Shown here: positions 1 to 17,817 of the stretch, one piece after another
Layout: every line of letters begins with the position of its first letter
How positions within the stretch are numbered: the stretch's first letter is position 1
Virus record (IMG/VR): IMGVR_UViG_2565956714_000001
Span: 1-24,851 of that record
Origin: a virus
Taxonomy: Duplodnaviria > Heunggongvirae > Uroviricota > Caudoviricetes
DNA length: 24,851 nt
Reading direction: 5' to 3' (one strand)
The notes under the pieces: generated by a model
Told to the model about the DNA's origin: nothing
The model's database searches: none
Seen by the model: only the letters and a program-made list of their open reading frames with translations
Made by a program: the position numbers and the translations under genes

Positions 1-1
1 T

Positions 2-118
2 CAGATGAAAGAATTAATCGGTAACGAAGGAGATATTCATGTCACTTGCAACCACAGTGAAGGAGAGCAAGTTACAGAGACGCATGTACACGCAGAAAGC
101 TCTCTGGTATCGCCATAA
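2..118 (+). CDS. partial ORF open from the window edge (3' end of an upstream early-left gene or a short ORF); function unknown
   Basis: Frame 2 is open from the first base to TAA at 116-118. It sits directly upstream of erf, where P22-type phages carry abc genes (positional analogy only). No RBS is visible inside the window. Confidence 0.3.
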   Translation, partial: QMKELIGNEGDIHVTCNHSEGEQVTETHVHAESSLVSP

Positions 119-219
119 TGGTGACCGCGAAGGAATGCGGGTATGCCTTAATTTGTCCCGAGTCGAAGTATTAAATCAGCGTTATTTCCTTGGGGAATGT
201 CCATTCTGAGAACAAACAT

Positions 220-825
220 ATGAGCAAAGAATTTTACGCAAGGCTGGCAGCTATTCAGGAGAATCTGAACGCGCCAAAGAATCAATACAACTCATTCGGC
301 AAATATAAATACAGAAGCTGCGAAGACATTCTTGAGGGTGTTAAGCCGTTACTGAATGGCCTGTTTTTATCAATCAGCGATGAAGTTGTGTTGATTGGTG
401 ATCGGTATTACGTGAAAGCCACGGCAACTATTACTGATGGCGAAAACAGTCATACAGCAACCGCTCTTGCACGAGAGGAAGAAAGCAAGAAAGGAATGGA
501 TTCTGCACAAGTTACGGGAGCCACAAGCTCTTATGCACGCAAGTATTGCCTCAATGGTTTGTTCGGCATTGATGATGCGAAAGATGCAGATACAGACGAG
601 CATAAACATCAGCAGAACGCAGCAGCAAAGCAATCAAAACCATCACCTACACCTGAACAGGTTCTAAAAGCATTCACTGACGCAGCAATGCAGAAAAACA
701 CCGTGGAAGAGCTTAAACAGGCGTTCGCCAAAGCGTGGAAGATGCTCGAAGGCACACCGGAGCAGCACAAAGCGCAGGACATTTACAACATCAGACGAGA
801 CGAATTAGAAGGAGCGGCTGCTTAA
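220..825 (+). CDS. erf: Erf-family single-strand annealing (essential recombination function) protein
   Basis: The translation from MSKEFYARLAAIQENLNAPKNQYNSFGKYKYRSCEDILEGVKPLL matches P22 Erf as I recall it, including the SSYARKYCLNGLFGIDD segment. I chose the ATG at 220 rather than the ORF-track start at 190 because the remembered Erf N-terminus is MSKEFYARL. Confidence 0.92.
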   Translation: MSKEFYARLAAIQENLNAPKNQYNSFGKYKYRSCEDILEGVKPLLNGLFLSISDEVVLIGDRYYVKATATITDGENSHTATALAREEESKKGMDSAQVTGATSSYARKYCLNGLFGIDDAKDADTDEHKHQQNAAAKQSKPSPTPEQVLKAFTDAAMQKNTVEELKQAFAKAWKMLEGTPEQHKAQDIYNIRRDELEGAAA

Positions 826-1208
826 TGGCACATTCGATTACTGTAAGACTAAACAAGCCCGCAAGAGAGTTTCAGGCTGGGGAAAATATCGGATTCAACA
901 TCCGTGCTGGCGTTCAGTATTACGATCGCCAGACAAAAAAGAAAGAATGGACAAACTACAGCGCCGTTGTATTTGCCAAGCCGGGAGCGCAAGCGGATTA
1001 CTATCGTAGCGTTCTGGTTGAAGGAGGCATTGTAGAAATTACCGGAGAAAACATCAGGGTTGATGTTTATCAGGGGCAAAATGGTCAATCAATCACTCTT
1101 GAATTACTGAATGCAAAGATTGGATTTGCAACCTCAGGAAACAGCCAACAGCAGCAAAGTAGCAATCATCAAAATCATCCTGAATACGACGATTCAATTC
1201 CCTTCTAA
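825..1208 (+). CDS. ssb: phage single-stranded DNA-binding protein (SSB-like, OB-fold) with acidic C-terminal tip
   Basis: ATG at 825-827 overlaps the erf stop (TAATG). The protein ends ...PEYDDSIPF, like the DDDIPF tail of E. coli SSB, after a Gln/Ser-rich linker. The N-terminal ~100 aa are OB-fold-like (RAGVQYYDRQTKKKEWTNYSAVVFAK). The 90-nt upstream extension in the ORF track overlaps erf and is rejected. Confidence 0.8.
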   Translation: MAHSITVRLNKPAREFQAGENIGFNIRAGVQYYDRQTKKKEWTNYSAVVFAKPGAQADYYRSVLVEGGIVEITGENIRVDVYQGQNGQSITLELLNAKIGFATSGNSQQQQSSNHQNHPEYDDSIPF

Positions 1209-1231
1209 AGTAGCAACATAAGGATTCCATT

Positions 1232-1528
1232 ATGCCAGCGCCTCTGTATGGTGCGGATGACCCGCGCCGCTGTTCCGGCAATTCCGTATCGGAGGTGCTG
1301 GATAAATTCAGAAAAAACTACGACCTGATAATGTCTCTACCGCAGGAAACGAAAGAGGAAAAGGAATTTCGCCACTGTATATGGCTTGCAGAGAAAGAAG
1401 AACGCGAGCGAATTTACCAGACATCAATCCGACCATTCCGCAAAGCCACATATACCCACTTCCCTGAATATATCGACCCGCGCCTGCGTAATTACCGCTC
1501 ACGCTATGGCGCTATCAGTAATGACTGA
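1232..1528 (+). CDS. hypothetical early-left protein (98 aa)
   Basis: ORF with an AAGGA RBS about 8 nt upstream (taaggattccattATG). It occupies the position that kil-like genes hold downstream of erf in P22; no motif is recognised. Confidence 0.6.
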
Positions 1529-1548
1529 GGAATTTACCATGAGAGGAC

Positions 1549-1706
1549 TTGCATACAATCCCGGCATTCTTCCGGCAGAAATGATTATTCGCCAACGCGT
1601 AAAGCCAATGCCATCGAGAGAGGAATTGCTTAAGAGAAAGAGTTTCGGTTCTGTTAATGACAACAAATATCTGAATGCGATGTTGCGCAAAGGAGGCAAC
1701 CGGTGA
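1549..1706 (+). CDS. hypothetical small protein (52 aa)
   Basis: GAGGAA RBS 7 nt upstream of the ATG at 1549 (ctgaggaatttaccATG). It sits at the position of c3 in P22-type early-left operons (positional only). The longer ORF-track version from 1386 overlaps the previous gene and lacks an RBS. Confidence 0.5.
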
Positions 1707-1786
1707 CTGGACATGCAGCGATCCTCGACATGTGCTGTGGCAGTCGCATGTTCTGGTTAGATAAGAATGACGAACGGGCGAGATAA
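1703..1786 (+). pseudogene. 27-codon GTG-initiated ORF with a SAM-methyltransferase motif-I-like peptide (ILDMCCGS); possible remnant of a methyltransferase gene
   Basis: Translation [27 protein letters not shown]. The hhDxxxGxG-like pattern resembles methyltransferase motif I, but the frame ends after 27 codons. Very tentative. Confidence 0.15.
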
Positions 1787-1836
1787 GCGATCGGTTAAGT
1801 GCTATAGTAATGCGCTTTTGTATTTATGGAGTGAAT

Positions 1837-2535
1837 ATGAAAAATATCCTACTGGCATCATTGTTAGTGGCATCGCCGGGTGCATTTGCAGCCAGCTTTG
1901 ACTGCCAAAAGGCTTCGACAGCAATCGAACATAAAATCTGCGATAACGAACGTCTGTCAAAATTAGACGAACAGCTTAGCTCTGCCTATTCTAGTGCCCT
2001 CAAAGAAAACCCAGAGAACGCAGACACCATAAAAATGGTTCAACGTCAGTGGGTAAATATGCGTGGAAAACTCACTGATAATAAGGCTCTGGAGCTGGCT
2101 TATCTTATCCAAATTAATGGCCTCAAAGGTTTGGGGAGTTCAGTCAGCGTAACAGCGGCCAATGAGATACCCACGTCGACGCAGAAACATTCTGAAGAGC
2201 AGGAAGAAACAAGTAAGGCAGAAGTTAAGTCGGTCAAGAACGGCAATAAGCTAACCTTAGAGTCATTCCGAGCTAAATATGTAGAAGTAGATGGTGAGTA
2301 TTACAGCACGACATCCATTCCTAGAGGCAGTTCGTTCTTGTTCACTTGCGCCAGTCGTATTGCTGATGACCAAGTGAATGTTTGGAAGAAACATGCAGCC
2401 AAAGAGGGCAAAATCGACCTATTCTTTGAGGTTGAGAATCACTTACACACTGCTATGTTGAACGCCAATTTCCAGAAGTTGAATTCAGACCCTGCCAAAA
2501 GAGGTATTTGTAATCTGATTAACGCAGTGCCGTAA
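1837..2535 (+). CDS. secreted/periplasmic DUF1311-like (lysozyme-inhibitor LprI-like N-terminal domain) protein; phage moron
   Basis: N-terminal signal peptide MKNILLASLLVASPGAFA, then FDCQKASTAIEHKICDNERLSKLDEQLSSAYSSAL, which matches the C..A...E..IC....L..LD..L...Y pattern of DUF1311 as I recall it. GGAG RBS before the ATG at 1837; own terminator downstream. Confidence 0.7.
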   Translation: MKNILLASLLVASPGAFAASFDCQKASTAIEHKICDNERLSKLDEQLSSAYSSALKENPENADTIKMVQRQWVNMRGKLTDNKALELAYLIQINGLKGLGSSVSVTAANEIPTSTQKHSEEQEETSKAEVKSVKNGNKLTLESFRAKYVEVDGEYYSTTSIPRGSSFLFTCASRIADDQVNVWKKHAAKEGKIDLFFEVENHLHTAMLNANFQKLNSDPAKRGICNLINAVP

Positions 2536-2543
2536 GTAAATTT

Positions 2544-2575
2544 AGGGCCACAGTTGTGGCCTTAAATATTTTTTC
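2544..2575 (+). terminator. rho-independent terminator after the DUF1311 gene
   Basis: GGCCAC-agtt-GTGGCC hairpin (2546-2561) followed by a T-rich run (ttaaatattttttc). Confidence 0.6.
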
Positions 2576-2741
2576 AGCCTTTTCTTATTTGTAATAAGCA
2601 GTACTTAGTAGTGCTTATAAAACAGAATAAAAAACATATGACTTTGGCGATTACCCAGTAAAGATATTCGAAATAAATGTAAATATCGGCAATGAATAAC
2701 AATCCTCGCACTCGCGGGGATTTCTTTTATATGGGGATAAT

Positions 2742-3542
2742 ATGACCATCCACTTTCACGGCAGCCCAATATGGGGGGATGAGCATGCCCCTACAGATAT
2801 GCTGATTAAAGCCCTTTACCGTGATGGTGGGGCTTTTGTTTCATTTGCCAGACCAGAGCAGATGAAAAAGATTGCCATGTTCCCTTGTGATATACGCCTT
2901 GATAACGGTGCTTTTAGCGACTGGATGAAAGCATTAAAGAAAGGCACTCCGGTAGACTGGAGTAAGAGACGAGCAAAATTCTACGACTTTGTTGGGAAGT
3001 GGTTCAGCAGAATTGAATGGTTTCTTATACCTGACGTTATCGAAGGGACAGAGGCAGAAAACGACGAGCAGATTGAGTTGGTTCCTGATTGGCTAAAATC
3101 AAAAGCGGTTCCGGTCTGGCATACCGACGAATCAATTGAACGTCTTTTACGCCTTTCTAGCAAATTTGAATGGGTGGCGATTGGATACTGCGGACCACAC
3201 AGGCACATACGCTCTAAATGGTGGGAACAGAGAATGGATGAAGTTTTCACTGAGCTTTATATCAATCGTAATTTGAAAGTGAAAATTCATGGTCTTCGAA
3301 TGCTCGACGTGAGAGTTCTTGGTATGTATCCGTTCGCCAGTGCGGATTCTACTAATGTTGCTGTTAACGTACCGAAGACAGAGAAGCGATTTCCTGAGAT
3401 TACCGACAAACTGGCACGCACAGCTGTACTTCGCGCTGCTATTGAAAAGGTGCACCCGCCATCGATATCAGCATGGGTAGACAGAAAGATGAGAGAGCCG
3501 GCGCAAGCCGGTTTTTTATTTGAATTCACCGACGCCGCTTAA
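2742..3542 (+). CDS. hypothetical 266-aa protein; possible TGT-fold (tRNA-guanine transglycosylase / DpdA-like) enzyme
   Basis: Clean ORF bounded by terminators on both sides. Motifs RLDNGAFS, LIPDVIEG, AIGYCGP and FASADSTNV occur in the order and approximate spacing of TGT-family motifs LTDSGGYQ, AFDEC, LMGVGKP and DMFDCV (from memory). No Cys/His zinc site is present. The functional assignment is speculative; the CDS itself is well supported. Confidence 0.6.
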   Translation: MTIHFHGSPIWGDEHAPTDMLIKALYRDGGAFVSFARPEQMKKIAMFPCDIRLDNGAFSDWMKALKKGTPVDWSKRRAKFYDFVGKWFSRIEWFLIPDVIEGTEAENDEQIELVPDWLKSKAVPVWHTDESIERLLRLSSKFEWVAIGYCGPHRHIRSKWWEQRMDEVFTELYINRNLKVKIHGLRMLDVRVLGMYPFASADSTNVAVNVPKTEKRFPEITDKLARTAVLRAAIEKVHPPSISAWVDRKMREPAQAGFLFEFTDAA

Positions 3543-3561
3543 TGCGGATTTCTTTTATCTG

Positions 3562-3588
3562 AACTCGCTACGGCGAGTTTTGTTTTAT
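3562..3588 (+). terminator. rho-independent terminator after the 266-aa gene
   Basis: AACTCGC-tacg-GCGAGTT hairpin followed by TTTGTTTTAT. Confidence 0.6.
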
Positions 3589-3599
3589 GGAGATGATAA

Positions 3600-3767
3600 A
3601 TGCACTTCCGAGTAACAGGTGAATGGAATGGAGAACCATTCAACAGAGTTATCGAAGCAGAGAACATCAACGACTGCTATGACCACTGGATGCTGTGGGC
3701 GCAGATGGCACATGCAGACGTAACCAATATTCGAATTGAAGAACTGAAAGAACACCAAGCCGCCTGA
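3600..3767 (+). CDS. hypothetical small protein (55 aa)
   Basis: ATG at 3600 preceded by GGAG (3590-3593). The stop codon lies within a GC hairpin followed by a T6 run. Translation MHFRVTGEWNGEPFNRVIEAENINDCYDHWMLWAQMAHADVTNIRIEELKEHQAA. Compact, with its own RBS and terminator. Confidence 0.6.
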   Translation: MHFRVTGEWNGEPFNRVIEAENINDCYDHWMLWAQMAHADVTNIRIEELKEHQAA

Positions 3768-3781
3768 TGGCGGTTTTTTAT
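3758..3781 (+). terminator. rho-independent terminator
   Basis: AGCCGCC-tgat-GGCGGT stem followed by TTTTTTA. Confidence 0.6.
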
Positions 3782-3824
3782 TGCCTGATTTGCAGGTTCG
3801 ATTCCCTATTCGGAGATAGCACTC

Positions 3825-4025
3825 ATGCAACACGAACTACAACCTGATTCACTGGTTGATTTGAAATTCATCATGGCTGATACTGGCTTCGGTAAAACCT
3901 TCATCTACGACCGGATTAAGTCCGGCGACCTGCCAAAAGCCAAAGTTATCCACGGGCGAGCAAGATGGTTATATCGTGACCATTGTGAATTCAAAAATAA
4001 GCTCTTAAGCCGCGCCAATGGGTAA
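3825..4025 (+). CDS. torI: TorI-like excisionase / recombination directionality factor (AlpA/Xis-family winged helix)
   Basis: The 66-aa translation MQHELQPDSLVDLKFIMADTGFGKTFIYDRIKSGDLPKAKVIHGRARWLYRDHCEFKNKLLSRANG matches my recollection of E. coli KplE1 TorI. GGAG RBS 9 nt upstream. Confidence 0.85.
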   Translation: MQHELQPDSLVDLKFIMADTGFGKTFIYDRIKSGDLPKAKVIHGRARWLYRDHCEFKNKLLSRANG

Positions 4026-4086
4026 AATAGCGGGTAAAATATTTCTTACATCTAAAAAACATCATTCCAATCAATCCCCTGCCGAT

Positions 4087-4131
4087 GGTGAGGCTTTATA
4101 GAAAAATACCTCACCATTATTTTGTAATTTT
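4087..4131 (+). terminator. possible terminator downstream of torI
   Basis: GGTGAGG ... CCTCACC stem with a large 15-nt AT loop, followed by attattttgtaatttt. Confidence 0.35.
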
Positions 4132-4140
4132 CGCATAGAT

Positions 4141-4179
4141 AAAAGAAAATAAATCACGAATTGTTTAAATTTGTGATTT
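4141..4179 (-). terminator. probable rho-independent terminator of the tailspike gene
   Basis: On the minus strand: AAATCACAAATT-taaac-AATTCGTGATTT (one mismatch) followed by ATTTTCTTTT. Confidence 0.45.
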
Positions 4180-4226
4180 ATTACACGCAATAATTATCAT
4201 GCTTTATTAAACCCTCCAGCTAATCC

Positions 4227-6293
4227 TTATATACTCCTTGAAATTTCAAACCAAATACCACTCAGTCTTTTTAGTGTTATAATTGTGTTGCCTGATATTG
4301 ACGCTATATCTTTTTCTCCTCTTAACCTTATAAGCTTGTTATTATGAATTAACTTTGATCCTATAGACATTCTTACTTGTATTATTTGCCCATCAATTCC
4401 ATTAGAAAAGTAACTTACAACTTTATTGTCAAGGTATATGCTTGGCCCGACAAATGCACTAGATGTGCCTCCCGGAGCAAAATATTCAATAGATGGGTCC
4501 TCAAGAGCGGTAACGTTATCTATTTTATAGAAAGGAGTCCTTCCCCTAATGCTATAGTACTGTGAGTAATTAGCATTTTTTGCTGAAATATCTATGGCAG
4601 AAATTCCTGTCATTAAACTATCATCTTCAACTAAGTATAATATGTGTCTGAAATTACCAGCCTGATGGATTGTTTCTCCATATATATTTATATTACCAAG
4701 AACAACACCATTTAGCTGGCAAAGATAAATAGCACATGCTGAATCACCGTTAGGTGTATATACGTTTCCAGATATGGAATACTCAGTCGTGCTTCCATTA
4801 ATCATCTTGGTAACACTCCTTCTGGAACTGTATATTGCATTATCAGGTAATTTAAGCGTCTGTGATGATTCTATTCCTATACAAGCTACAGATGCTGTTA
4901 TTGTATTATTTTTTAATGAAACATATCGCGAGTTAAAGCAATGTACTCCGTATCTCCAGTCACCTAGTATCATGTTGCCTATTATGTCTATACTGTATGC
5001 ACCTTGTGCAAACTGGATAGCTGCATCATCAGATATGTAACTAGAAGTAGAGGCTGACTGTATATAGTTGTTTGATATCTGTATATATCTAGATTCTCCA
5101 AAAATAATTGCTGATGATTCTGCATTGATTAGCCTATTTCCCTCTATTTTTACACGCTCGCAACCAGTTCCAAGATTTATATTACGATGCGAACCTCCAA
5201 TTAGTATATTCCCTGTAAATTCAGCATTAAATAACCCGAAAGCTTGCACGTTGTGAGTTCCGTTGATAACGGTGTTGTTTGACACAGTTATGTACTGAAT
5301 GGTTTTGTGTTGCGAATTCCATTTTACACTTCCAGTTTCAGTGTCTATGTTGTTTTGTGCTACTAAATATATACCAGCAATACCAACTGTTCCTGCACCA
5401 CTATCAGGATCTATGGGCATCTCAATTGTATTTCCTTCTATGGTATCGTATAAGTTTAGTGATGTGATATCTGTTGTTCCAATACGTATACCATATCGTT
5501 CAGTTCCATCAACACCGAAACCATATACTCTGTTTCTTAGTATTTTGCACCTAGTTGTTGCGCTAAGAAGAATTCCTCCTCTGGCAACACCATTTGCATT
5601 AATGGAACAATCACTAATTTCAAGGTCTGTGTGACCGGAAGTACCTTGCGAAAACAAGCAGACACCACCCTGTGCTGTGACAATCAGGCTAAGATCACTT
5701 ATTTTTTTTATGCCAACAGGTATTTCTACCTGAGAAACGAGATATGTGCTTCCTTTTTTACCTCTTACCCAACGAATTTTCCCAGAAGAACAGTATTTCA
5801 TAGCAGACACTATAGATTCTGTATCATCATTAACCCCATCACCAACAGCGCCGAATTGTTCCGGTGTAACATACAATGATTGATCATACAAAGTTCCAAT
5901 TGGCTGGACGCCAACCATCCCAGAACCAAGTGAAGATGAAAGCTCATACTTAAATTGGTCTGGGTCGTACTTCAACACATTTGGGAAATAAAATTGCTGT
6001 GCACCATACGCATCATAAACAGCCATAGAATGGCCTTGCACTGTAACGAACTTGGCGATCTGTCCGTTATACACAGGATAACCGGCAGAGTTAATAACAA
6101 TTGGTTGTTCTACCTGAACATGTTTACCATCTTCTCGTTCCAGATATACCGGAATCTGGTTTTCAGGATTTACCGGGTCCGTGTCAATTTTACCGATATA
6201 AATTTTTCCATTGGCTACGGCTTTAAAAGAACGCGCCATAGTGAAGAGTTGCGAAGGCATGCTCACTACAACATTGGCTGTAATGTCTGTCAT
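4227..6293 (-). CDS. tailspike protein: P22 gp9-type N-terminal head-binding domain fused to a divergent right-handed beta-helix receptor-binding domain
   Basis: The N-terminus [50 protein letters not shown]...[14 protein letters not shown] matches the P22 gp9 head-binding domain from memory. The remaining ~570 aa are beta-helix-like (NNT/GN/IxG coil repeats) with no P22 similarity, and the DNA there is visibly AT-rich. GGAG RBS upstream on the minus strand. Confidence 0.9.
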
Positions 6294-6425
6294 TTAATTT
6301 GCTCCAGATACAAGGAATCACCGCAGCGTGGCTACGGTTGGTGTTTGTTGCATACCGAAATGGTACGATTGTTGATTTGTACAGTAGGTTTTACGATGCC
6401 ATTCCACCCATTTGGTGAGGCATTG

Positions 6426-6683
6426 ATGATGTACAGCAAATACGATGAGGCGCAGTTCCACTTGAGGCTTACGCACGAGTTGCACGCTAAGATTAAGCAA
6501 CGTGCAAAAATGAATAACAGGTCTATCAATTCCGAAATTGTGGCTACGATGGAAGAATCACTCTCCAAACCATCACCTGTAAGCGGGTATCGTGATGAAG
6601 AAGAGAGGCTGGCCTCATTAATCTCGGAACGAGTAAAAGAAGTTGTGGCTGATATCCTTAGAAAAGAAAAAACCCGCAATTAA
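6426..6683 (+). CDS. mnt: Mnt-like ribbon-helix-helix repressor
   Basis: MMYSKYDEAQFHLRLTHELHAKIKQRAKMNNRSINSEIVATMEESLSKPSPVSGYRDEEERLA parallels P22 Mnt as recalled (RHH N-terminus and SKPSPVTGYRNDAERLA C-terminal region). GGTGAGG RBS precedes the ATG. The ORF-track frame from 5955 upstream is antisense to the tailspike and is not counted. Confidence 0.85.
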   Translation: MMYSKYDEAQFHLRLTHELHAKIKQRAKMNNRSINSEIVATMEESLSKPSPVSGYRDEEERLASLISERVKEVVADILRKEKTRN

Positions 6684-8705: not shown

Positions 8706-9347
8706 ATGAATTTTGACGATCAATTCCCATCAAGAGTATCTCTGGCAAGACAGTCCAGGGGTATGACGCAGGCGCAGTTGTCAAAATTAGCTGGTGTTGT
8801 TCAACGTCAAATAGCTGCATACGAGGGTGGTGAGGCTAAACCACGGCTTCGTGTATTGCAGGCATTAGCCAACGCATTAGGCACTACGGCTGAGTGGTTA
8901 GCTCTGGGTGAAGGTCAGGGGCCTGGAACAAAAAACGTCATGCCTGACGTTCTGGTAAAGCAAATACCAATCCTCAAACTAGATGAAGTTATGCATTACC
9001 TAAACACAGGTGAACATTCATCGTCTAGATTTCATCCGGCAATATACAATGTTGGTGACTCTGCATTTGCATTGACTATTGAAGGTGAAGCTATGACTAC
9101 AAGTTCAGGTATTAGCTTTCCCAGAGGATCAGTTGTCACGTTCAGCCCTCTAGTAAAAGCTAAAAGCAAAGATTATGTAATAGCATCATTGGATAAAGAG
9201 CAAATATTGAGCTTCAAGCAGGTTTACATTGGTGAAATAGAGACAAACTTAGTATCCCTAAACCCAATGTATCCTAATATTCTTGTTAGAAATGAAGATG
9301 TTAGTATTTTGGCAACCGCAGTTTACCTTGAAATCCCGTTGCTTTGA
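8706..9347 (+). CDS. lambda-CI-like regulator: XRE-type HTH plus S24 (LexA-like) C-terminal domain with catalytic Ser replaced by Ala
   Basis: N-terminal HTH MTQAQLSKLAGVVQRQIAAYEGGEAKPRLRVLQALANALGTTAEWLALGE. The C-terminal VGDSAFALTIEGEAMTTSSGISFPRGSVVTF aligns to lambda CI [33 protein letters not shown], with GCT (Ala, 9090-9092) where CI has the nucleophile Ser. The Lys of the dyad is retained (LSFKQVY vs FTFKKLI). No Ala-Gly cleavage motif is seen in the linker. Confidence 0.8.
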   Translation: MNFDDQFPSRVSLARQSRGMTQAQLSKLAGVVQRQIAAYEGGEAKPRLRVLQALANALGTTAEWLALGEGQGPGTKNVMPDVLVKQIPILKLDEVMHYLNTGEHSSSRFHPAIYNVGDSAFALTIEGEAMTTSSGISFPRGSVVTFSPLVKAKSKDYVIASLDKEQILSFKQVYIGEIETNLVSLNPMYPNILVRNEDVSILATAVYLEIPLL

Positions 9348-9411
9348 TATCCTTTAGGAAGCGACACATTATCATCCGGTGTTCTGCTCAAAACTAAGGA
9401 GTGGCTACTCA

Positions 9412-10050
9412 ATGAAAAAAATAGATATATATAGCGATACATCAGCCTATGTCATAGGCTCATTGGGTTTTTTAATTTTTTTTGTTTGGCAGTACCAGTC
9501 ACTATCTCCAGGATGGAGATTTTTGGGGATGTCTTTGATATCACTTGGTGCAGGAATAGCAACGCAGGTGTTGATGTATCTCTTTAATGGATGGATCTCA
9601 AAAAGAGTTGAGAAAAAAAGAGCTACTTCAATATGTAGAAGCCTAGCTATTCCAGAAGACTCTACAGATCAGGATGATATTGCAAAATGTTGGCGGTATA
9701 TGATTGCAAGATACTCAAATGAGTTACTGGCAAACAGACTGTCCGACTTAATCGGGATCGTAGTTACCTCTGTTGGAACAATCATCAGTATAGGGATATC
9801 AATTTGGTATGTCGGGATGATTGTCTATTTTGTTTGGAATAGAGACTTCAATGAACCTTCCCTTCTTTTTATACCTTTATTTTTCAGGGTATTAGCATTC
9901 ATATGTGAGTTATTGCTCTCTTTTTTCTGCAATGTTTTGTTCAACAGATACCCAGGTGAAGCAAGAAAGTTTAATAAAAACTATGATGAGTTAAGGAGAA
10001 CAGATCCTTTTCTATCAAGCAAAGAGTTCCGCGATTCCATTCGCAATTAA
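9412..10050 (+). CDS. inner-membrane protein with four predicted TM helices; possible SieA-like superinfection exclusion protein
   Basis: AGGAG RBS before the ATG at 9412. Four hydrophobic segments are visible in the translation. The DNA is AT-rich. It occupies the slot where P22 has sieA; the function is positional inference only. Confidence 0.55.
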   Translation: MKKIDIYSDTSAYVIGSLGFLIFFVWQYQSLSPGWRFLGMSLISLGAGIATQVLMYLFNGWISKRVEKKRATSICRSLAIPEDSTDQDDIAKCWRYMIARYSNELLANRLSDLIGIVVTSVGTIISIGISIWYVGMIVYFVWNRDFNEPSLLFIPLFFRVLAFICELLLSFFCNVLFNRYPGEARKFNKNYDELRRTDPFLSSKEFRDSIRN

Positions 10051-10097
10051 CAACATCCATGACATCAACCCTTAGCGATCAGTTGCATCATTGGCAA

Positions 10098-10100
10098 GTA
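10098..10100. repeat. IS3 target-site duplication, left copy (GTA)
   Basis: GTA immediately outside the IS3 left inverted repeat; the same trinucleotide is at 11359-11361. Confidence 0.7.
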
Positions 10101-10165
10101 TGATCTTACCCAGCAATAGTGGACACGCGGCTAAGTGAGTAAACTCTCAGTCAGAGGTGACTCAC

Positions 10166-10465
10166 ATGACAAAAACAGTATCAACCAGTAAAAAACCCCG
10201 TAAACAGCATTCGCCTGAATTTCGCAGTGAAGCCCTGAAGCTTGCTGAACGCATCGGTGTTACTGCCGCAGCCCGTGAACTCAGCCTGTATGAATCACAG
10301 CTCTACAACTGGCGCAGTAAACAGCAAAATCAGCAGACGTCTTCTGAACGTGAACTGGAGATGTCTACCGAGATTGCACGTCTCAAACGCCAGCTGGCAG
10401 AACGGGATGAAGAGCTGGCTATCCTCCAAAAGGCCGCGACATACTTCGCGAAGCGCCTGAAATGA
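10166..10465 (+). CDS. insE: IS3 transposase OrfA (InsE, HTH)
   Basis: [54 protein letters not shown]... matches the recalled IS3 InsE. Confidence 0.92.
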
Positions 10466-11328
10466 AGTATGTCTTTATTGAAAAACATCAGGCTGAGTTC
10501 AGCATCAAAGCAATGTGCCGCGTGCTCCGGGTGGCCCGCAGCGGCTGGTATACGTGGTGTCAGCGGCGGACAAGGATAAGCACGCGTCAGCAGTTCCGCC
10601 AACACTGCGACAGCGTTGTCCTCGCGGCTTTTACCCGGTCAAAACAGCGTTACGGTGCCCCACGCCTGACGGATGAACTGCGTGCTCAGGGTTACCCCTT
10701 TAACGTAAAAACCGTGGCGGCAAGCCTGCGCCGTCAGGGACTGAGGGCAAAGGCCTCCCGGAAGTTCAGCCCGGTCAGCTACCGCGCACACGGCCTGCCT
10801 GTGTCAGAAAATCTGTTGGAGCAGGATTTTTACGCCAGTGGCCCGAACCAGAAGTGGGCAGGAGACATCACGTACTTACGTACAGATGAAGGCTGGCTGT
10901 ATCTGGCAGTGGTCATTGACCTGTGGTCACGTGCCGTTATTGGCTGGTCAATGTCGCCACGCATGACGGCGCAACTGGCCTGCGATGCCCTGCAGATGGC
11001 GCTGTGGCGGCGTAAGAGGCCCCGGAACGTTATCGTTCACACGGACCGTGGAGGCCAGTACTGTTCAGCAGATTATCAGGCGCAACTGAAGCGGCATAAT
11101 CTGCGTGGAAGTATGAGCGCAAAAGGTTGCTGCTACGATAATGCCTGCGTGGAAAGCTTCTTTCATTCGCTGAAAGTGGAATGTATCCATGGAGAACACT
11201 TTATCAGCCGGGAAATAATGCGGGCAACGGTGTTTAATTATATCGAATGTGATTACAATCGGTGGCGGCGGCACAGTTGGTGTGGCGGCCTCAGTCCGGA
11301 ACAATTTGAAAACAAGAACCTCGCTTAG
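10462..11328 (+). CDS. insF: IS3 transposase OrfB (InsF, DDE catalytic domain); expressed as an OrfAB fusion by -1 frameshift
   Basis: [36 protein letters not shown]... with DDE-type motifs ([17 protein letters not shown]). It overlaps insE in the -1 frame. Confidence 0.92.
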
Positions 11329-11341
11329 GCCTGTGTCCATA

Positions 11342-13159
11342 TTACGTGGGTAGGATCAGTATTGGTCTGATGGCATTTGCGGCGTTATTCAGCGCTCTTT
11401 CATAGGCTGGCGTTCCAGCTTTAGTGTTTGCCAGACGTAAGAGCGCATTCCTTGCTGCTTTGGACTCATACAAGCGCATCATTGCACCGAAACCAGCCTC
11501 AAGCCCCATTGATACGCCAAGAGTCGCAGTTGCGCCAATCGTCCTTATCCTGTTGGCTTGCGATTGCCCCGTCTGAGTTACTACATTTGCGGTGTCTGAC
11601 CTTGCTGTTTGCTGTAGAACTTCATTAAGAGCATCAAGTTCTTTCATGTGCTTTCCAGAAAAAATAGTGTTGTAAATTTCACCTCCTGACTGAGATTTCA
11701 GCTTATTAACTTCAGTGATGAACTTGGCTGGAGAGTCACCGGCCTTTTCCGCTATTTTGCTGACGTAAGCTGCACGCATAGCATCTTTCCCTTTATCATC
11801 CAGTGCGCTCCAGATTCGTTTCACGTCAGATGGTTTTCTGCTTAATACAACGGTATTTATAAGTTCAGGACTGGCTTCACTGCTTGCCTTGTTGAGCTTG
11901 TTGGCAATGTTTTTATTAAGCACCTTATTATAAACGTTTGCATAATCGGAATTTGCTTTAAGGTATTTTGCTGCGTCTGATGCACCGAGGTTTTTAGCAA
12001 CTGCGTTACGAAGGTCTTTTGACATTGCATTCTCTACCATATTGGTAGCTGCTTTTGCCTGGTTGGGGAAGACCATAGCATCTCCCTGAACATTAGATCT
12101 AAATGCTGTTCTGTGCTGACGCAAGAGATCAAACGTAACATCCAAATCAGTTGCAGGGTTTGCTAATTCTTCACGTAGGTTACGCAAGGATGTAAGCAGG
12201 CTTTGATTGGCTGAAGTCCCAAGCCGTTCCTGTCTTGCGATCGCTGTATTCAGAGCATTCATGGTATTTGTGGTATCAACTGCGGCATTACCCATTTTAT
12301 TGGTGACGTCATTGATAACAGCGCCAGCAGCATCCTTCCGCCCCCTTAACGTGGTGGTCAGAGATTTCACCACATCATCAGGGTTGTACTCACCAAAACG
12401 GTCAAAATAATTGCTTACCAGCTTACTACGCGTTGCATATTGCTCCGCTCGCTTTGAGCCTGTCCCGAGCAAAGCCCCCTCGGCATCCTGAGTAAGGCCG
12501 CGAGTGAAAGCATTTTTCGGCGGGATAACATCAGATGTCATTGGTGTCACGCCCATCGATTCTGATGTGGCAATTTTCTTCGCCACTTCTGGCGCAATAT
12601 CACCTTTTATAGCCGTTATTCCACGCCCTATTCCCTTTGCTGCTGCGGAAAGAACACCCTGAGCGGCAAGGTTAACTCCGGCATTTTTAGCTGCATTTTG
12701 TGCGAAATCGCCTTTCTGATTTGCGGCCTCTGCCAGTGATCCAATAGCCATGCTTCCTGCCGTTCCAACTCCTGGAACTAAATACCCGCCAATTGTTTCT
12801 CCAGCTTGCGCATAAGGGTCTGTTGGTCGATCTACTGGACGATAGACATCGTCCAAAACCTTGGGGCCACCAAGCCCCTGGCTGATTGCATTAATCAGAC
12901 TTGCGCCACCCTGCAATACGTCAAATGGTATATTTACCAGACCACGACCAGCCTGCTCTGCAATTTGCCCTGCACTTTGACCACCAGTGAGCAAGTCAGT
13001 AGCTTTTTCTACCAGAGATTGTTCTTCTGGCTGCGATTGGTTTTGAGTGGATTGATCACCAGAAGACAGCATCTGAGCAATGCGACGTGCTCCCTCAGTA
13101 TCACCAGCAGCATCAGCATTCCTTAACGCCGTCATCAATTGTTCACGACTATAGGCCAT
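11342..13159 (-). CDS. ejection (pilot/internal) protein, P22 gp16-like; C-terminus altered by the IS3 insertion
   Basis: 605-aa ORF at the gene 16 position, co-oriented and coupled to the gp20-like gene. Its last codons and stop (11342-11358) lie inside the IS3 right end. Confidence 0.8.
11359..11361. repeat. IS3 target-site duplication, right copy (GTA)
   Basis: GTA immediately after the IS3 right end, identical to 10098-10100. Confidence 0.7.
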
Positions 13160-14535
13160 TACTGCCCTCCGAGATATTTGCTAATTAATTCGTCATCGGA
13201 CAATTGCTGTTGAGGTTGGCTATCTCCATAACTTGAGGAAAGAAAACGTTTTGCCGCAGAGTTCAATGATTCACCCTTCTTAACATCCATCCCCATGATG
13301 TTTCGGTTGCGATCAGATTGTCCTGGGCTGCCGTTTGCACTCATCCACTCTGACCTAAACTCGTTGAACTTCGCGTTATTACTTTCCATTTTTGCCATAC
13401 CCCTTAACCATCGAGCCATGACCATTGGATTATCCGTTTCGCTTGGAATGCCTTTCCTTGCAAACTCAATATCCTTATCTGATGCAGGGCCGGGAGGGAG
13501 AAGCTTGGTTGCCTGCGCATTGGCTAGTTGGTTGAATCTAATCCGCATATCTCGGAGGTAGTTATCTTGCCCCGTAAGCTTAGTGAACATATTTTCAGCG
13601 TTACCGAACAAACCAGGAGTTGGCTTCTCCTTCTCAAGCGTGTCAGCAAGCGTTGTCATTGAATCGGCAGCATTACGACTAGCTGCCGCATCACCTGCTG
13701 ATTTTTCTATAGCCTTTTCCATGTTCACGGATAGTTTTGGCGCAGCATTAATAAGTTCATCGGCCTTCTTTTGTGCCTGTTGTACTTCAAAACCGAATTT
13801 CTGCTTATCAAGTGCCAGTCTTTCTGCTGCAAGTCCGTGTCCAGTCATTGCTGACTGATAGGAAAGGTTTTGCCCTCTAGCCTGAAGTGCCTCGCCAGCC
13901 TGATTGCTGCGGATTGTCTCTGCCAGCCTGCCTCGGTCAATCTCACGACCAGCCATCTTGTCCTGAACATTGAAGTAGTCAATCGGACCAAGTGCAGCCA
14001 TCCCAAGGTGATCAACAAACTCACCAAATCCTGAAGGATTCTGCTGATACATCTGAGCAACGTTATTAGGGTCAACACCGACGCGAGTCAGTTCCTTGGC
14101 GTTGTTTTGCAGCCATGATTGCATTGCTTCTGGAGACGAGGCCGCAAGGCGTGCGCCAGCCGCTAAGGTGCCGATAGAATTGCGCTGGTCTTCATCAATG
14201 AATCCCATGCCTTTACGAACGGATTCAATCTGGTCTGGATATTGAGTAGCCAACTGACGCAAAGCACCGCGATCACCAGACGCATAAGCATTAGCGTACG
14301 CCTGCTGAAATTCTTTCTGCCGCTGAGCCTGCTTTTCCTGCTGAAACACCCCTGCAATACCTGAAAGGCCTTGCAAAGCAGTCAGCCCAACATTGTTAGC
14401 GCCTGAACGCTCAATATCATTGTTCTGCCTGATAAGCTGAAGCGTATTGCCGATGTCATTTACGCTCGGAGCGTTTGAGTTGACACCACCGATACCAGCC
14501 AACAATCCGCCGTTTGTTCCTTGCCAAGTAGCCAT
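13159..14535 (-). CDS. ejection protein, P22 gp20-like
   Basis: 458-aa Gly/Ala/Gln-rich ORF in the conserved 7-20-16 order; start overlaps neighbouring genes. Confidence 0.8.
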
Positions 14536-14544
14536 GATTACCCC

Positions 14545-15240
14545 TTAAAACAACGAGCCAAGCAGGCCAAGTCCGCCACCGATTGCGGCGCCTAATCCAG
14601 TACCAAGACCGGGAACAATAGAACCAAGAGCGGCACCAGTCATAGCTCCTGAAGCTCCTCCGCTAATTGCTGTCTGAAGACCGGATGGCTTATTGGCATT
14701 AGCAGCGGCGAGAGCTGCGCTTTGCTGTGCAATGCTGCTCATGTTGTTGGCGTATGTCTGCCCGGCGTTCGCCTGACCTTGCAACGCACCAAGGCCAATG
14801 TTTGCCAGATTGTTGTAGTTGCTCATCTGGTTTGATAGCCACGACTGACCGAGAGTCGGCGCAATCGTAGCCAGTTGATTGCTTGTGGCTGTCGATCCAA
14901 GTCCACCCGTTGCCTCCGCAGCAGCAAGACTCTGGTAACGCGCCTGACCTGCAAGGTCTTTATACTGCTGAGAGTTGTAATACTGATTAAGTGCCTGCCC
15001 CTGTCCTTCTAAACTGGAAAGATTCTGAAGCTGGTTAACATACTGCTCCGCAAGCGGCGTGAACGGAGCAAGGTTTTTCATGATCGTCTGCCACTGCTGA
15101 TTTTGCAGGTCTGCGGCATACTTCTGAGCTTCTGCTGCATACTTTGTGCTTTTATCAGAACTGCCACCTTTCCCGCCTTTTTCAGGGTAATAAGGTTCCT
15201 CGCCGCGCAGTTTTCTGCCCAGCGTAAATGCATATAACAT
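14545..15240 (-). CDS. ejection protein, P22 gp7-like
   Basis: 231 aa, N-terminus MLYAFTLGRKLRGEEPYYPEKGGKGG, with a Gly-rich hydrophobic C-terminal segment. Synteny with gp14 and gp20. Confidence 0.8.
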   Translation of the reverse strand: MLYAFTLGRKLRGEEPYYPEKGGKGGSSDKSTKYAAEAQKYAADLQNQQWQTIMKNLAPFTPLAEQYVNQLQNLSSLEGQGQALNQYYNSQQYKDLAGQARYQSLAAAEATGGLGSTATSNQLATIAPTLGQSWLSNQMSNYNNLANIGLGALQGQANAGQTYANNMSSIAQQSAALAAANANKPSGLQTAISGGASGAMTGAALGSIVPGLGTGLGAAIGGGLGLLGSLF

Positions 15241-15242
15241 GG

Positions 15243-15698
15243 CTATCTCCCGTGATTCAGGAAGTCGATTAGTTCTTCGCGTGTGGCGCTGTAAAACGTC
15301 ACGTCATCCACGCCTTTGAAGTATTTCTTGATGGTTCCTACACGCTTAAGGCCAATCATTGCGCAGTACATCTGCCCGTGACGGAATTTGCGTGCAGCAA
15401 ATGATGTGACGCACTGAACGGTGGTGTTGGTCAGAATGTATCGCCAGAACGCCAGCCCTATTTCCTTGCTGAAGCCGCGAATCTCTGGCAGGTACATGGC
15501 GTGGCAATCGAATGTAAGCGGCTGAATCTCCTGATAGTAAACAATGCCGCCAAACTGCCCGTGCACGTTAACTTCAAAGTAACGGCAATCAGGTTTGTAG
15601 CCGTATTCATCACCGTTATTGCTCCCGGCGATAATGTCAGGGTGATTTCCGACTGCTTCTATCAGGTCGATGTTTCGCGTTGGTTTGAATGTAATCAT
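15243..15698 (-). CDS. P22 gp14-like virion assembly/ejection-associated protein
   Basis: 151-aa ORF between the needle gene and the gp7-like gene, as in the P22 order 26-14-7. Confidence 0.75.
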   Translation of the reverse strand: MITFKPTRNIDLIEAVGNHPDIIAGSNNGDEYGYKPDCRYFEVNVHGQFGGIVYYQEIQPLTFDCHAMYLPEIRGFSKEIGLAFWRYILTNTTVQCVTSFAARKFRHGQMYCAMIGLKRVGTIKKYFKGVDDVTFYSATREELIDFLNHGR

Positions 15699-16399
15699 CA
15701 GTCAATCAGCCCATGTAATCTAAGTGCTGTTTCAAGCGCCAGAATACGCTGCCGCGCCTGCTGCAAACCTGTAGCGAGAGCCGCGACTTCGGATTGTGTG
15801 TACGTAGTGCCGACCGTGTATGACTGGTTAGCGTTGAATGAGCCAAGAAGAGGTGTACCTGTGGCTGCAGTCCATCCGGTATTTCTTGCTCCAACAACCT
15901 GAATTCCATCAACTGAATATGATGTTTTTACATCCAGCGGTGACGCAAGAGACTGCGATTCTGTTACGGTTTTCGATACGTAATCACTCTTAATGCCAGA
16001 GACATCGTTTTCTACGTCATCCAGTCTTTGGTCAACAGTGACCAGATGCCCCTGAATATCGATAACCTCATCCAGCAAGTAATCAACATCGCTACGCAGT
16101 ACGACTATCTTCCCTTCGGCGGTTGTTAACCTGACCTCAAGGAGATTTATCGCTTTTGTGTTTGCGGTGATTCTTGCGTCGTGATCAGCCAGTTCTACGT
16201 CCTGTTCATCGTTTTTTACCTGGGCATCGTAAGCGCCCTGACCAGCCTGATTTGCCTTCCCAGCAATTGCACCGACATCAGCTCCCTGATTTATGACATA
16301 CAGCAGGTAAGACTGGCTGAATATATTGCGTGGCAAAATTGAAGCATCAAGGCGCGTAGCCTGAACCACGACAGGATCATTCAGTGATGAATCAACCAT
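15698..16399 (-). CDS. tail needle protein, P22 gp26-like (trimeric coiled coil)
   Basis: 233 aa. N-terminus ...[17 protein letters not shown] and C-terminus [24 protein letters not shown] match recalled P22 gp26; central heptad-rich region. Confidence 0.88.
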
Positions 16400-17817
16400 T
16401 ACTCAATCCTTATCTGGCAGCCAGACAGAGTGACAGGTGACTTCGTGATAACGCGCAATTTGAAGCCGACATTTTTCCTGATGCGCCCAACTCGCTTCCA
16501 CAAAACGCGTTTGTCGTAAACGAACGGTTCATTCAGCTCAATCATCTGCTCACGACCGTAATTTATGCCGTCAGTGGTTGCAGAGAGGAACAGGCGGTCG
16601 GCGTACTGAGCTACGCCAGTGGATGATTCCACCTCCAGATCGAAGCATCTGGCGTTATCCGCTTTGAACAGTGGAGTAAACAGCAGGTGTTCCTGTTGAA
16701 GCCCATACTGGCTGCTGATATCGAACTGCAATTTGCCAGTAACCGATTCCAGCTTATCGCCGCACGTTATCTGATTGCCTTCGTAAATGAAGTCGATAGC
16801 GCGGTACACATCGTCATACAGACCTGTTTTCAGTACACACCATTGCGGAGCATTGGCGCTTGAAGATGCGTCGTATACGAGGACATGGCGCGGAAGATGG
16901 ATAATCAGCAACTCATGAGCATCAAACCGCAGCGATTCCATCACACCATCAGCCAGTTCATCAGCAGTGTAGGAGCGGAGGATTTTCTCAATGCTCGCGC
17001 TGGCGATTGGTGACACCTGACCGGATCCGATGATGTATACAGACGGCGCACCTGTTGCCGGATTGCTGATGAACGCATACGAATCAGCGAACTGCGTTTT
17101 GCAGTAGGTTCCAGCGATACCTTTCTGCACCATTAACGATGGCTGGGCGACATACAAAGCAGCACCAACGGTGGTTGCACCAGTCAGGGAGAAATATTCA
17201 ATCGTTGATGAACCAAAGCAGACGATGAAGTCTCGCCATGTTCCTATGCCGATGATGCCGTCCGGCTGCGATTCTGCGCGATATTGTGCGCTGTAACGGT
17301 CAGGATGCGATTCGTCTTCAAGGTCAGTGATAAACCATGAATCCGTGCCGTCTTTTGACCACGCATAACGCCCACGTAAGCGAGTAATGTCACGAACCGA
17401 ACCTAACTCATACTGCGTGAACCCGCTGTCTGCAGGCCAGTTTGAGACGGTTTTAACCGTGCCATCATAGCGGTATTCGACCAGTTGCCCGTTAACGCCT
17501 ACCGCCTGTGATGTTCGACCATGCGCCATTGATACGCGACCACTTCCGGCAACATCACCGACCTCACTTTCGCCCTTATACAGTTTGCCACCACACACGC
17601 GATAAACAGCATTCTGCGCCATGTTGTACTCAACTCCGCGCGATACGCCGTTTACATCAGAGCGTTTGGCAATGCCCGGGAATGAGCGAAGATATCCGCT
17701 GCTGTTCAGGATTTCTTTGGGTGTAGCCAACATATTCACTGGCAGATAGTCGATATAGTCGGCGTTTCTAAAGTCTTTGCCGACACCTTTCATAAGCGGA
17801 AGTTGCTGAATAGGCAT
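16399..17817 (-). CDS. head-to-tail connector/tail hub protein, P22 gp10-like
   Basis: 472 aa. [49 protein letters not shown]... is near-identical to recalled P22 gp10. Confidence 0.9.

Follow-up and report, generated by a model that had tools for sequence, protein, structure and literature searches.

Tailspike modules set the O-serogroup that a phage can infect. They also have direct uses, both in typing and as antibacterial proteins aimed at chosen targets. The P22-type tailspikes that have been characterised are trimers, attached to the virion by their N-terminus, in which a beta-helix binds and cleaves the O-antigen. In the P22-like phages the exchange of the receptor-binding domain at the boundary of the head-binding domain is textbook knowledge, and in the endorhamnosidase of P22, gp9, the catalytic residues are E359, D392 and D395. 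The gene studied here was found in a stretch of viral DNA of 24,851 nucleotides, referred to below as the window. It encodes an ordinary modular phage tailspike, in which a conserved P22-type anchor is followed by a swapped-in, AT-rich module. Taking this mosaic reading as a whole, we consider it highly probable that 4227..6293 encodes the tailspike, the protein that binds and destroys the receptor, of a prophage in E. coli HVH 91 that is a P22-like podovirus.

The window corresponds to positions 890-25740 of the E. coli HVH 91 scaffold KE705262.1 (GCA_000457305.1), in reverse orientation, and the minus-strand frame 4227..6293 is intact, with an ATG start and 688 codons for amino acids. The identical 688-aa protein has already been deposited for the same strain (EQQ12399.1 / WP_021823755.1); it carries the database names 'bifunctional tail protein' and 'phage tailspike protein', and WP_021823755.1 represents a cluster of 40 members (90% identity), all from E. 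coli. The gene is situated at the end of a P22-type virion block, 3' of gp7/gp20/gp16 and the immI region. Upstream of it are found the ejection genes gp7/gp20/gp16 and the genes for SieA, a repressor-like protein, an antirepressor and an Arc-family protein, and on its other side lie the converging early-left genes for Erf, Abc2 and a TorI-type excisionase. The gene order of the source contig (Inj_translocase, Phage_P22_gp16, SieA, antirepressor, Arc, tailspike) is matched in the relatives.

An IS3-family element (HTH_Tnp_1 and rve ORFs, GC about 0.60) is present between the gp16 gene and sieA, at approximately 10157-11328 of the window. Insertion sequences are also located just upstream of related tailspike genes, namely in locus L011 (IS3-family) and in E. 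coli A23 (IS1), and in locus L026 an IS3-family element is found downstream of the tailspike gene and the EpsG-family gene that follows it. The 242-aa plus-strand ORF 5955-6683, which overlaps the tailspike start, is an artefactual upstream extension of the Arc-family gene; the real Arc-family repressor (85 aa, Pfam Arc) is encoded at about 6426-6683, divergently from the tailspike. The prophage copy in the window looks integrase-less and is possibly defective or episomal. Being without an integrase and bearing an IS element, it may not build virions now.

The features of the gene and its 3' flank are collected in Table 1.

Table 1. Features of the tailspike gene and its flank (positions in the window; codons counted from the ATG)
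Feature	Position	Strand	Basis
P22-type head-binding (tail-attachment) domain, codons 1-114	5952..6293	-	PF09008, PDB matches, DNA identity
Recombination junction zone, codons ~112-121	5932..5958	.	Homology to other P22-like tailspike genes stops
Linker and N-terminal beta-helix cap, widely shared motif, codons 115-200	5694..5951	-	Phi92 gp150 match
Right-handed parallel beta-helix body, codons 201-575	4569..5693	-	
Candidate substrate groove/active site (inferred), codons 347-475	4869..5255	-	Invariant polar residues
C-terminal beta-rich domain, codons 576-688 and stop	4227..4568	-	Model strands 579-687
AU-rich hairpin and U-rich run, probable tailspike terminator (tentative)	4148..4182	-	RNA fold of 4060-4235
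Inverted repeat ATGGTGAGG...CCTCACCAT, left edge of AT-rich cassette	4085..4117	.	Sequence read and fold

The Pfam family Head_binding (PF09008) is matched by aa 1-113 over the full profile (1-113 of 113, E=3.4e-64), and the same part of the protein matches the solved structures of P22 gp9 and Sf6 gp14 with E-values of 1e-51 to 1e-62. Identity over aa 1-113 amounts to 85/113 residues (75%) for P22 gp9 and 99/113 (88%) for Sf6 gp14, in line with an earlier note on this DNA, in which the N-terminal ~110 residues had been described as close to the P22 head-binding domain. At the DNA level, megablast matches to HK620, Sf6, CUS-3, epsilon34 and others display 83-87% identity, limited to nt 1-332/345 of the gene. 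The likeness to P22 ends there in the protein as well: phmmer against full-length gp9 aligned only aa 1-120, and a second stretch scored 0.5 bits. Neither a beta-helix homologous to that of the endorhamnosidase nor equivalents of its three catalytic residues were found, which agrees with the earlier view that the beta-helix part is no kin of the P22 enzyme.

The break in homology is sharp. Matches to E. coli prophage DNA, followed from the right, end at window positions 5949-5958, and the closest head-binding DNA, that of locus L015, is 95% identical over 6308..5932 with nothing beyond. In the record of CUS-3, the annotations of the segment that matches gene nt 1-341 include a feature 'bsq1; boundary sequence'. 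The same boundary is visible in the proteins. The tailspikes of other P22-type prophages are 90-97% identical in aa 1-113 and 41-68% after aa 114. Proteins homologous to aa 115-688 (33-70% identity) enter the alignment at query aa 112-117 and stay in it to the last residue, irrespective of the anchor in front. These anchors comprise Tail_spike_N (PF18668, 11 proteins), Head_binding (5), the T7 tail-fibre N-domain (3) and others; the module stands behind at least four other anchor types, that of the Ackermannviridae TSP4 included. The module family is small, with about 20 clusters (50% identity) at E<=1e-30 in a search of 1.84 billion representatives.

In phage genomes the module is found in TSP4 (1019 aa), where it accounts for the last 570 aa, in Shigella phage Ag3, the Salmonella phages SKML-39 and P46FS4 and the Dickeya phages RC-2014 and phiDP10.3, with 40.0-40.2% identity over 97% of aa 115-688; PHROG 24578 matches it with E=1e-108. 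The TSP4 match corresponds to subtype TSP4-14 of Sorensen et al. (PMC8432352), a subtype without an assigned host (PMC8432352, PMC10791037). Receptor-binding subtypes have been delimited by at least 30% amino acid identity across the domain (PMC10408124), and with 40% the present module falls within TSP4-14, although at this level of identity the glycan specificity of the two may well differ.

The receptor-binding part is poor in G and C. The GC content of the head-binding part is 0.421 (GC3 0.386), that of the remainder of the gene 0.368 (GC3 0.256) and that of the rest of the window 0.471, with GC3 values of 0.39-0.55 in eight neighbouring genes. No other stretch of 1724 nt in the window has a GC content below 0.393. 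In composition the tailspike remainder departs from the rest of the window with high significance (chi-square p=1.6e-16); against the head-binding part only, p=0.07 was obtained, and the step in GC within the gene is no more than suggestive. The AT-richness that had been noticed from about position 5960 onwards is thus real relative to the rest of the window and weaker within the gene. The GC profile is not uniform, yet its change point is poorly defined: when only GC was considered, the best position within the gene was 5547, weakly supported and away from the domain boundary. For this reason the junction, put earlier at about 5960, was placed by homology, which ends at 5932-5958, and not by GC.

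The modest size of this intragenic gap and the off-boundary change point would also be expected if the gene had diverged in place, its AT-richness stemming from the Asn/Ile-rich make-up of a beta-helix or from codon choice, and Asn, Ile and Gly are indeed abundant in beta-helices. However, the drop in GC is steepest at the third codon positions and GC2 even rises. Moreover, the 40%-identical module of the Dickeya phage RC-2014 is encoded at a GC content of 0.51, which argues that the AT-richness here reflects history and not a constraint on the protein. Divergence in place would also have to account for the loss, over just a few bases, of all detectable DNA identity to the closest relative, which is 95% up to that point, for the presence of the module behind unrelated anchors, and for the EpsG-family gene that neighbours it in other hosts, with an equal GC3 (0.253). 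We regard it as most improbable. The sharp breaks at 4085 and about 5950, the GC3 of 0.256 and the occurrence of the module on several anchors instead support horizontal acquisition, and the claims of the earlier note that the gene is mosaic and that its receptor-binding domain was acquired horizontally both stand. Full-length homology to a single known tailspike was not observed either: the full-length relatives (P0002, PHROG 8280) are uncharacterised prophage proteins with the same mosaic pattern.

The other edge of the acquired DNA lies beyond the stop codon. Homology to prophage right ends (locus L003) spans 1..4084 of the window and the match to E. coli A23 covers 6237..4085 at 99.95%, which places the foreign cassette at about 4085-5950, the 3' untranslated region with its two hairpins included. 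The AU-rich hairpin starts 45 nt past the tailspike stop codon. Since a consensus scan did not list it, its assignment as the tailspike terminator is tentative. At 4084|4085, within the interval 4026-4226, the cassette directly adjoins the torI/att arm: the TorI-type excisionase gene (3825-4025) and its att arm are joined without a gap to the DNA 3' of the tailspike gene. The att core CTGCAGGGGACACCA, the integrase and the EpsG-family gene are missing at this point; in L003 the att core is located 16 nt past the end of the homology, and the EpsG-family gene comes next after the same tailspike in A23, in E. coli H2 and in loci L025 and L026. The junction is not a scaffold artefact, as the same 4084|4085 junction is contained in an independent Logan assembly (L005).

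In an AlphaFold2 model of the monomer, with pLDDT values mostly above 90 for aa 141-688, the chain forms a three-stranded beta-helix of right-handed sense and then a C-terminal domain rich in beta-strands. The three-stranded rungs superpose on known members of the pectin-lyase-like right-handed beta-helix superfamily, and the beta-helix-type motifs quoted in the earlier note are present in the translation. The structure search suggested at that time returned one close relative from BFVD, a tail spike from Pseudomonas phage PPpW-4 (TM 0.72), which is likewise uncharacterised. Sequence and profile searches of the PDB yielded no solved relative of the helix body, and a profile of 33 family members matched solved structures in the N-terminal cap only. 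The Pfam family End_N_terminal was matched by aa 149-189 below its cutoff, and among the NCBIfam models no specific one matches the tailspike protein. The strands of the C-terminal domain were modelled with a pLDDT of about 90. With an identity to relatives of 25-55%, versus 37-71% for the helix body, this domain is the least conserved part of the module; it is predicted to be a probable trimer-stabilising domain.

Within the module family 35 positions are invariant, mostly between aa 265 and 475. Among 33 homologues with 32-100% identity the residues H347, H369, R370, R380, R402, D422, D423, W446 and E475 are invariant, E265 is nearly so, and R270 also belongs to the invariant positions. In the model, H347, H369, R370, D422, D423, W446 and E475 occupy the third strands of successive rungs or the residues immediately ahead of them, and R380 and R402 lie in first strands. 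Judged from this strand pattern, the invariant residues may line one continuous groove, and conservation and strand pattern together point to D422/D423, along with E475 or H369/R370, as the candidate catalytic centre.

By analogy with all characterised P22-type tailspikes, the protein would form a trimer, and its module most likely binds and cleaves the host's O-antigen. In the mechanism that we propose, aa 1-114 would be the conserved adaptor that plugs the putative trimer into the tail hub. The self-contained, exchangeable module, comprising the linker, the N-cap, the right-handed beta-helix and the C-terminal domain, would start at about aa 115, recombined in at the conserved YDPDQF boundary. 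It would bind the O-antigen in the groove that runs along one side of the beta-helix, and would cut it as an endoglycosidase, with D422/D423, E475 and H369/R370 forming the presumed catalytic centre, by which the virion could reach the outer membrane. The most likely substrate would be the O-antigen of E. coli O133 (see below).

The O-antigen could also be recognised by a protein whose chemistry is not hydrolysis, i.e. a lyase, an O-acetyl esterase or a binding protein that does not cleave. Lyases need uronic acids, and the candidate O-antigen cluster encodes dTDP-rhamnose synthesis and two glycosyltransferases, with no uronic-acid-specific genes; in the known tailspike esterases the active domain is of the SGNH type and not a beta-helix; and an invariant pair of aspartates with a glutamate is typical of beta-helix glycosidases (P22, HK620, GH28, GH87). 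Such a non-hydrolytic function thus appears unlikely.

A different target is suggested by the database labels. The best full-length match, PHROG 8280, bears the label 'tail spike protein with colonic acid degradation activity', and aa 116-181 match the colanidase Phi92 gp150 (its aa 28-92, E=5.6e-11) as well as many proteins annotated as 'colanidase tailspike', which would make the module a depolymerase of capsule or colanic acid that strips exopolysaccharide, not an O-antigen enzyme. However, the similarity does not go beyond the N-terminal cap, where it extends over some 65 residues, and for many of the 'colanidase' tailspikes it consists of 45% identity over only ~55 aa. The profile of the whole family matches nothing more in the colanidase structure 6E0V (chain residues 21-101 only, E=1e-14), so that no homology across the catalytic beta-helix was found, and dozens of other beta-helices match the fold at least as well. 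Furthermore, colanic acid is near-universal in E. coli, whereas the module is confined to rare strains with an O133 cluster. We therefore consider a colanidase or capsule depolymerase quite improbable. The 'colanic acid degradation' label of PHROG 8280 was rejected as an N-cap artefact, the shared similarity being that of the N-cap only.

The case for O133 as the target of the presumed O-antigen glycosidase comes from co-occurrence. The DNA of the module is present in 2 of 5426 complete E. coli genomes, those of strains A23 and H2, and both possess the same rmlBDAC-wzx-GT2-GT4-wzy cluster, annotated as 'O133 family'. The O133 wzy gene itself was detected in only three of the 5426 genomes, the third being without the module. 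As A23 and H2 have many identical proteins and decayed prophage versions, possibly from one ancestor, they are not independent observations; the two strains are probably relatives in which one and the same prophage has decayed. A further assembly, GCA_027275455.1, encodes the tailspike variant P0043 on a contig of 4,141,800 nt, and the longest listed contig for the O133 Wzy variant P0070 is likewise 4,141,800 nt, so it appears that both are encoded on one contig. In at least seven draft assemblies the tailspike and the O133 Wzx/Wzy proteins have closely spaced GenBank accession numbers (e.g. EHV4448674/...459, CAD5662029/...717, EPC8483858/EPC8480841, HCP8552868/...241 and MBI0836143/MBI0834243). 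A run of accessions, WP_0218237xx-0218238xx, is common to the tailspike, its phage neighbours and O133 rfb/wzx proteins, which is only suggestive of HVH 91 carrying O133. The O133 flippase occurs in hundreds of assemblies, in contrast to the small tailspike cluster, and hence most O133 strains lack this tailspike.

In A23 (locus L007) two O-antigen clusters are present (8825-17028 and 23646-30201): the O133-family Wzx/Wzy cluster lies between galF and gnd, and the interval from wzzB to his contains a mannan cluster of the O8 family with an ABC transporter (wzm/wzt).

The prediction of tailspike specificity from the serogroup of the prophage host is published practice, and O133 is outside the serogroups covered so far (PMC10408124). 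In the published literature that we searched, no paper tied O133 to a tailspike and none dealt with strains A23 or H2. Given the co-occurrence with O133 gene clusters, we place the chance that the O133 O-antigen is the receptor of the module at somewhat better than even. The glycan specificity, left unknown by the earlier note, has in this way been narrowed to one candidate, found in two of the two complete genomes that contain the module. The structure of the O133 polysaccharide was reportedly described by Shashkov et al. in 2016.

In other hosts the tailspike gene is followed by a gene of the EpsG family, encoding a Wzy-like O-antigen polymerase (L001, 21872-22927; L008, 7872-8927; L025/L026, 6214-7269). 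Its GC content is 0.311, and its GC3 of 0.253 is as in the receptor-binding module. Among the 5426 complete genomes, the 2 with the module are precisely those that have this gene, and two prophages that have otherwise decayed heavily still contain it intact; H2 has a frameshift in its chromosomal O133 wzy gene. This suggests that the EpsG-family gene is an epsilon15-style seroconversion gene that travels with the tailspike module and is possibly kept by selection. Other genes are found after related tailspikes. In loci L015-L018 (protein P0012, module 41% identical) the tailspike gene is followed by gtrA-gtrB-Glucos_trans_II, and in loci L011-L014 (P0002, module 63% identical) by a gene of 382-399 aa without a Pfam match and a gene of 87 aa. 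That the downstream seroconversion genes of P0002 and P0012 differ from the EpsG-family gene suggests different O-antigen targets, and it fits a co-variation of tailspike modules and seroconversion genes.

In phage epsilon15 a phage polymerase re-links the repeat units of the O-antigen, which renders the lysogens immune. One might speculate that the module and the EpsG-family gene constitute a mobile 'recognise-and-convert' cassette for O133, the beta-helix in addition founding an unsolved glycosidase family; we hold this to be possible, if doubtful. If it were true, the tailspike would cleave the native O133 antigen and the phage polymerase would re-link the repeat units, lysogens would be immune as in epsilon15, hosts would retain the cassette even after decay of the prophage, and the beta-helix would found a family of glycosidases without a solved structure.

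What is new is limited: a module subtype without structural or biochemical characterisation gains a candidate serogroup. No principle is changed, and the protein had already been deposited under a correct name. The analysis adds a module family without a solved relative, and with O133 a candidate substrate that is absent from the published serogroup-to-tailspike maps.

In comparison with the described systems, the tailspike has most in common with those of P22, Sf6 and HK620. It shares the head-binding domain with P22 gp9 (75%), Sf6 gp14 (88%) and HK620 gp9, it occupies the same place after gp16 and the immI genes, and it follows the same plan of adaptor, linker, right-handed beta-helix and C-terminal domain, with an exchange point likewise at the conserved YDPDQF boundary. 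The uncharacterised prophage tailspikes P0002-P0009 of E. coli and Enterobacter have modules that are 50-68% identical by BLASTP (47-68% in global alignment); of these, P0002 also possesses the P22 head-binding domain (92%) and is located at the same argW-linked prophage end. In the TSP4-14 proteins (Ag3 orf213, SKML-39, P46FS4, RC-2014, phiDP10.3) the counterpart of aa 129-687 is a module of the same family (40% identity), but it is carried by a different anchor, ~440 aa of TSP4-type domains instead of the head-binding domain, and is encoded at a GC content of 0.51 versus 0.37 here. With the colanidase Phi92 gp150 (6E0V), finally, the ~65-residue motif of the N-terminal beta-helix cap is held in common, whereas no sequence similarity is seen in the remainder of the helix, which houses the active site of the colanidase.
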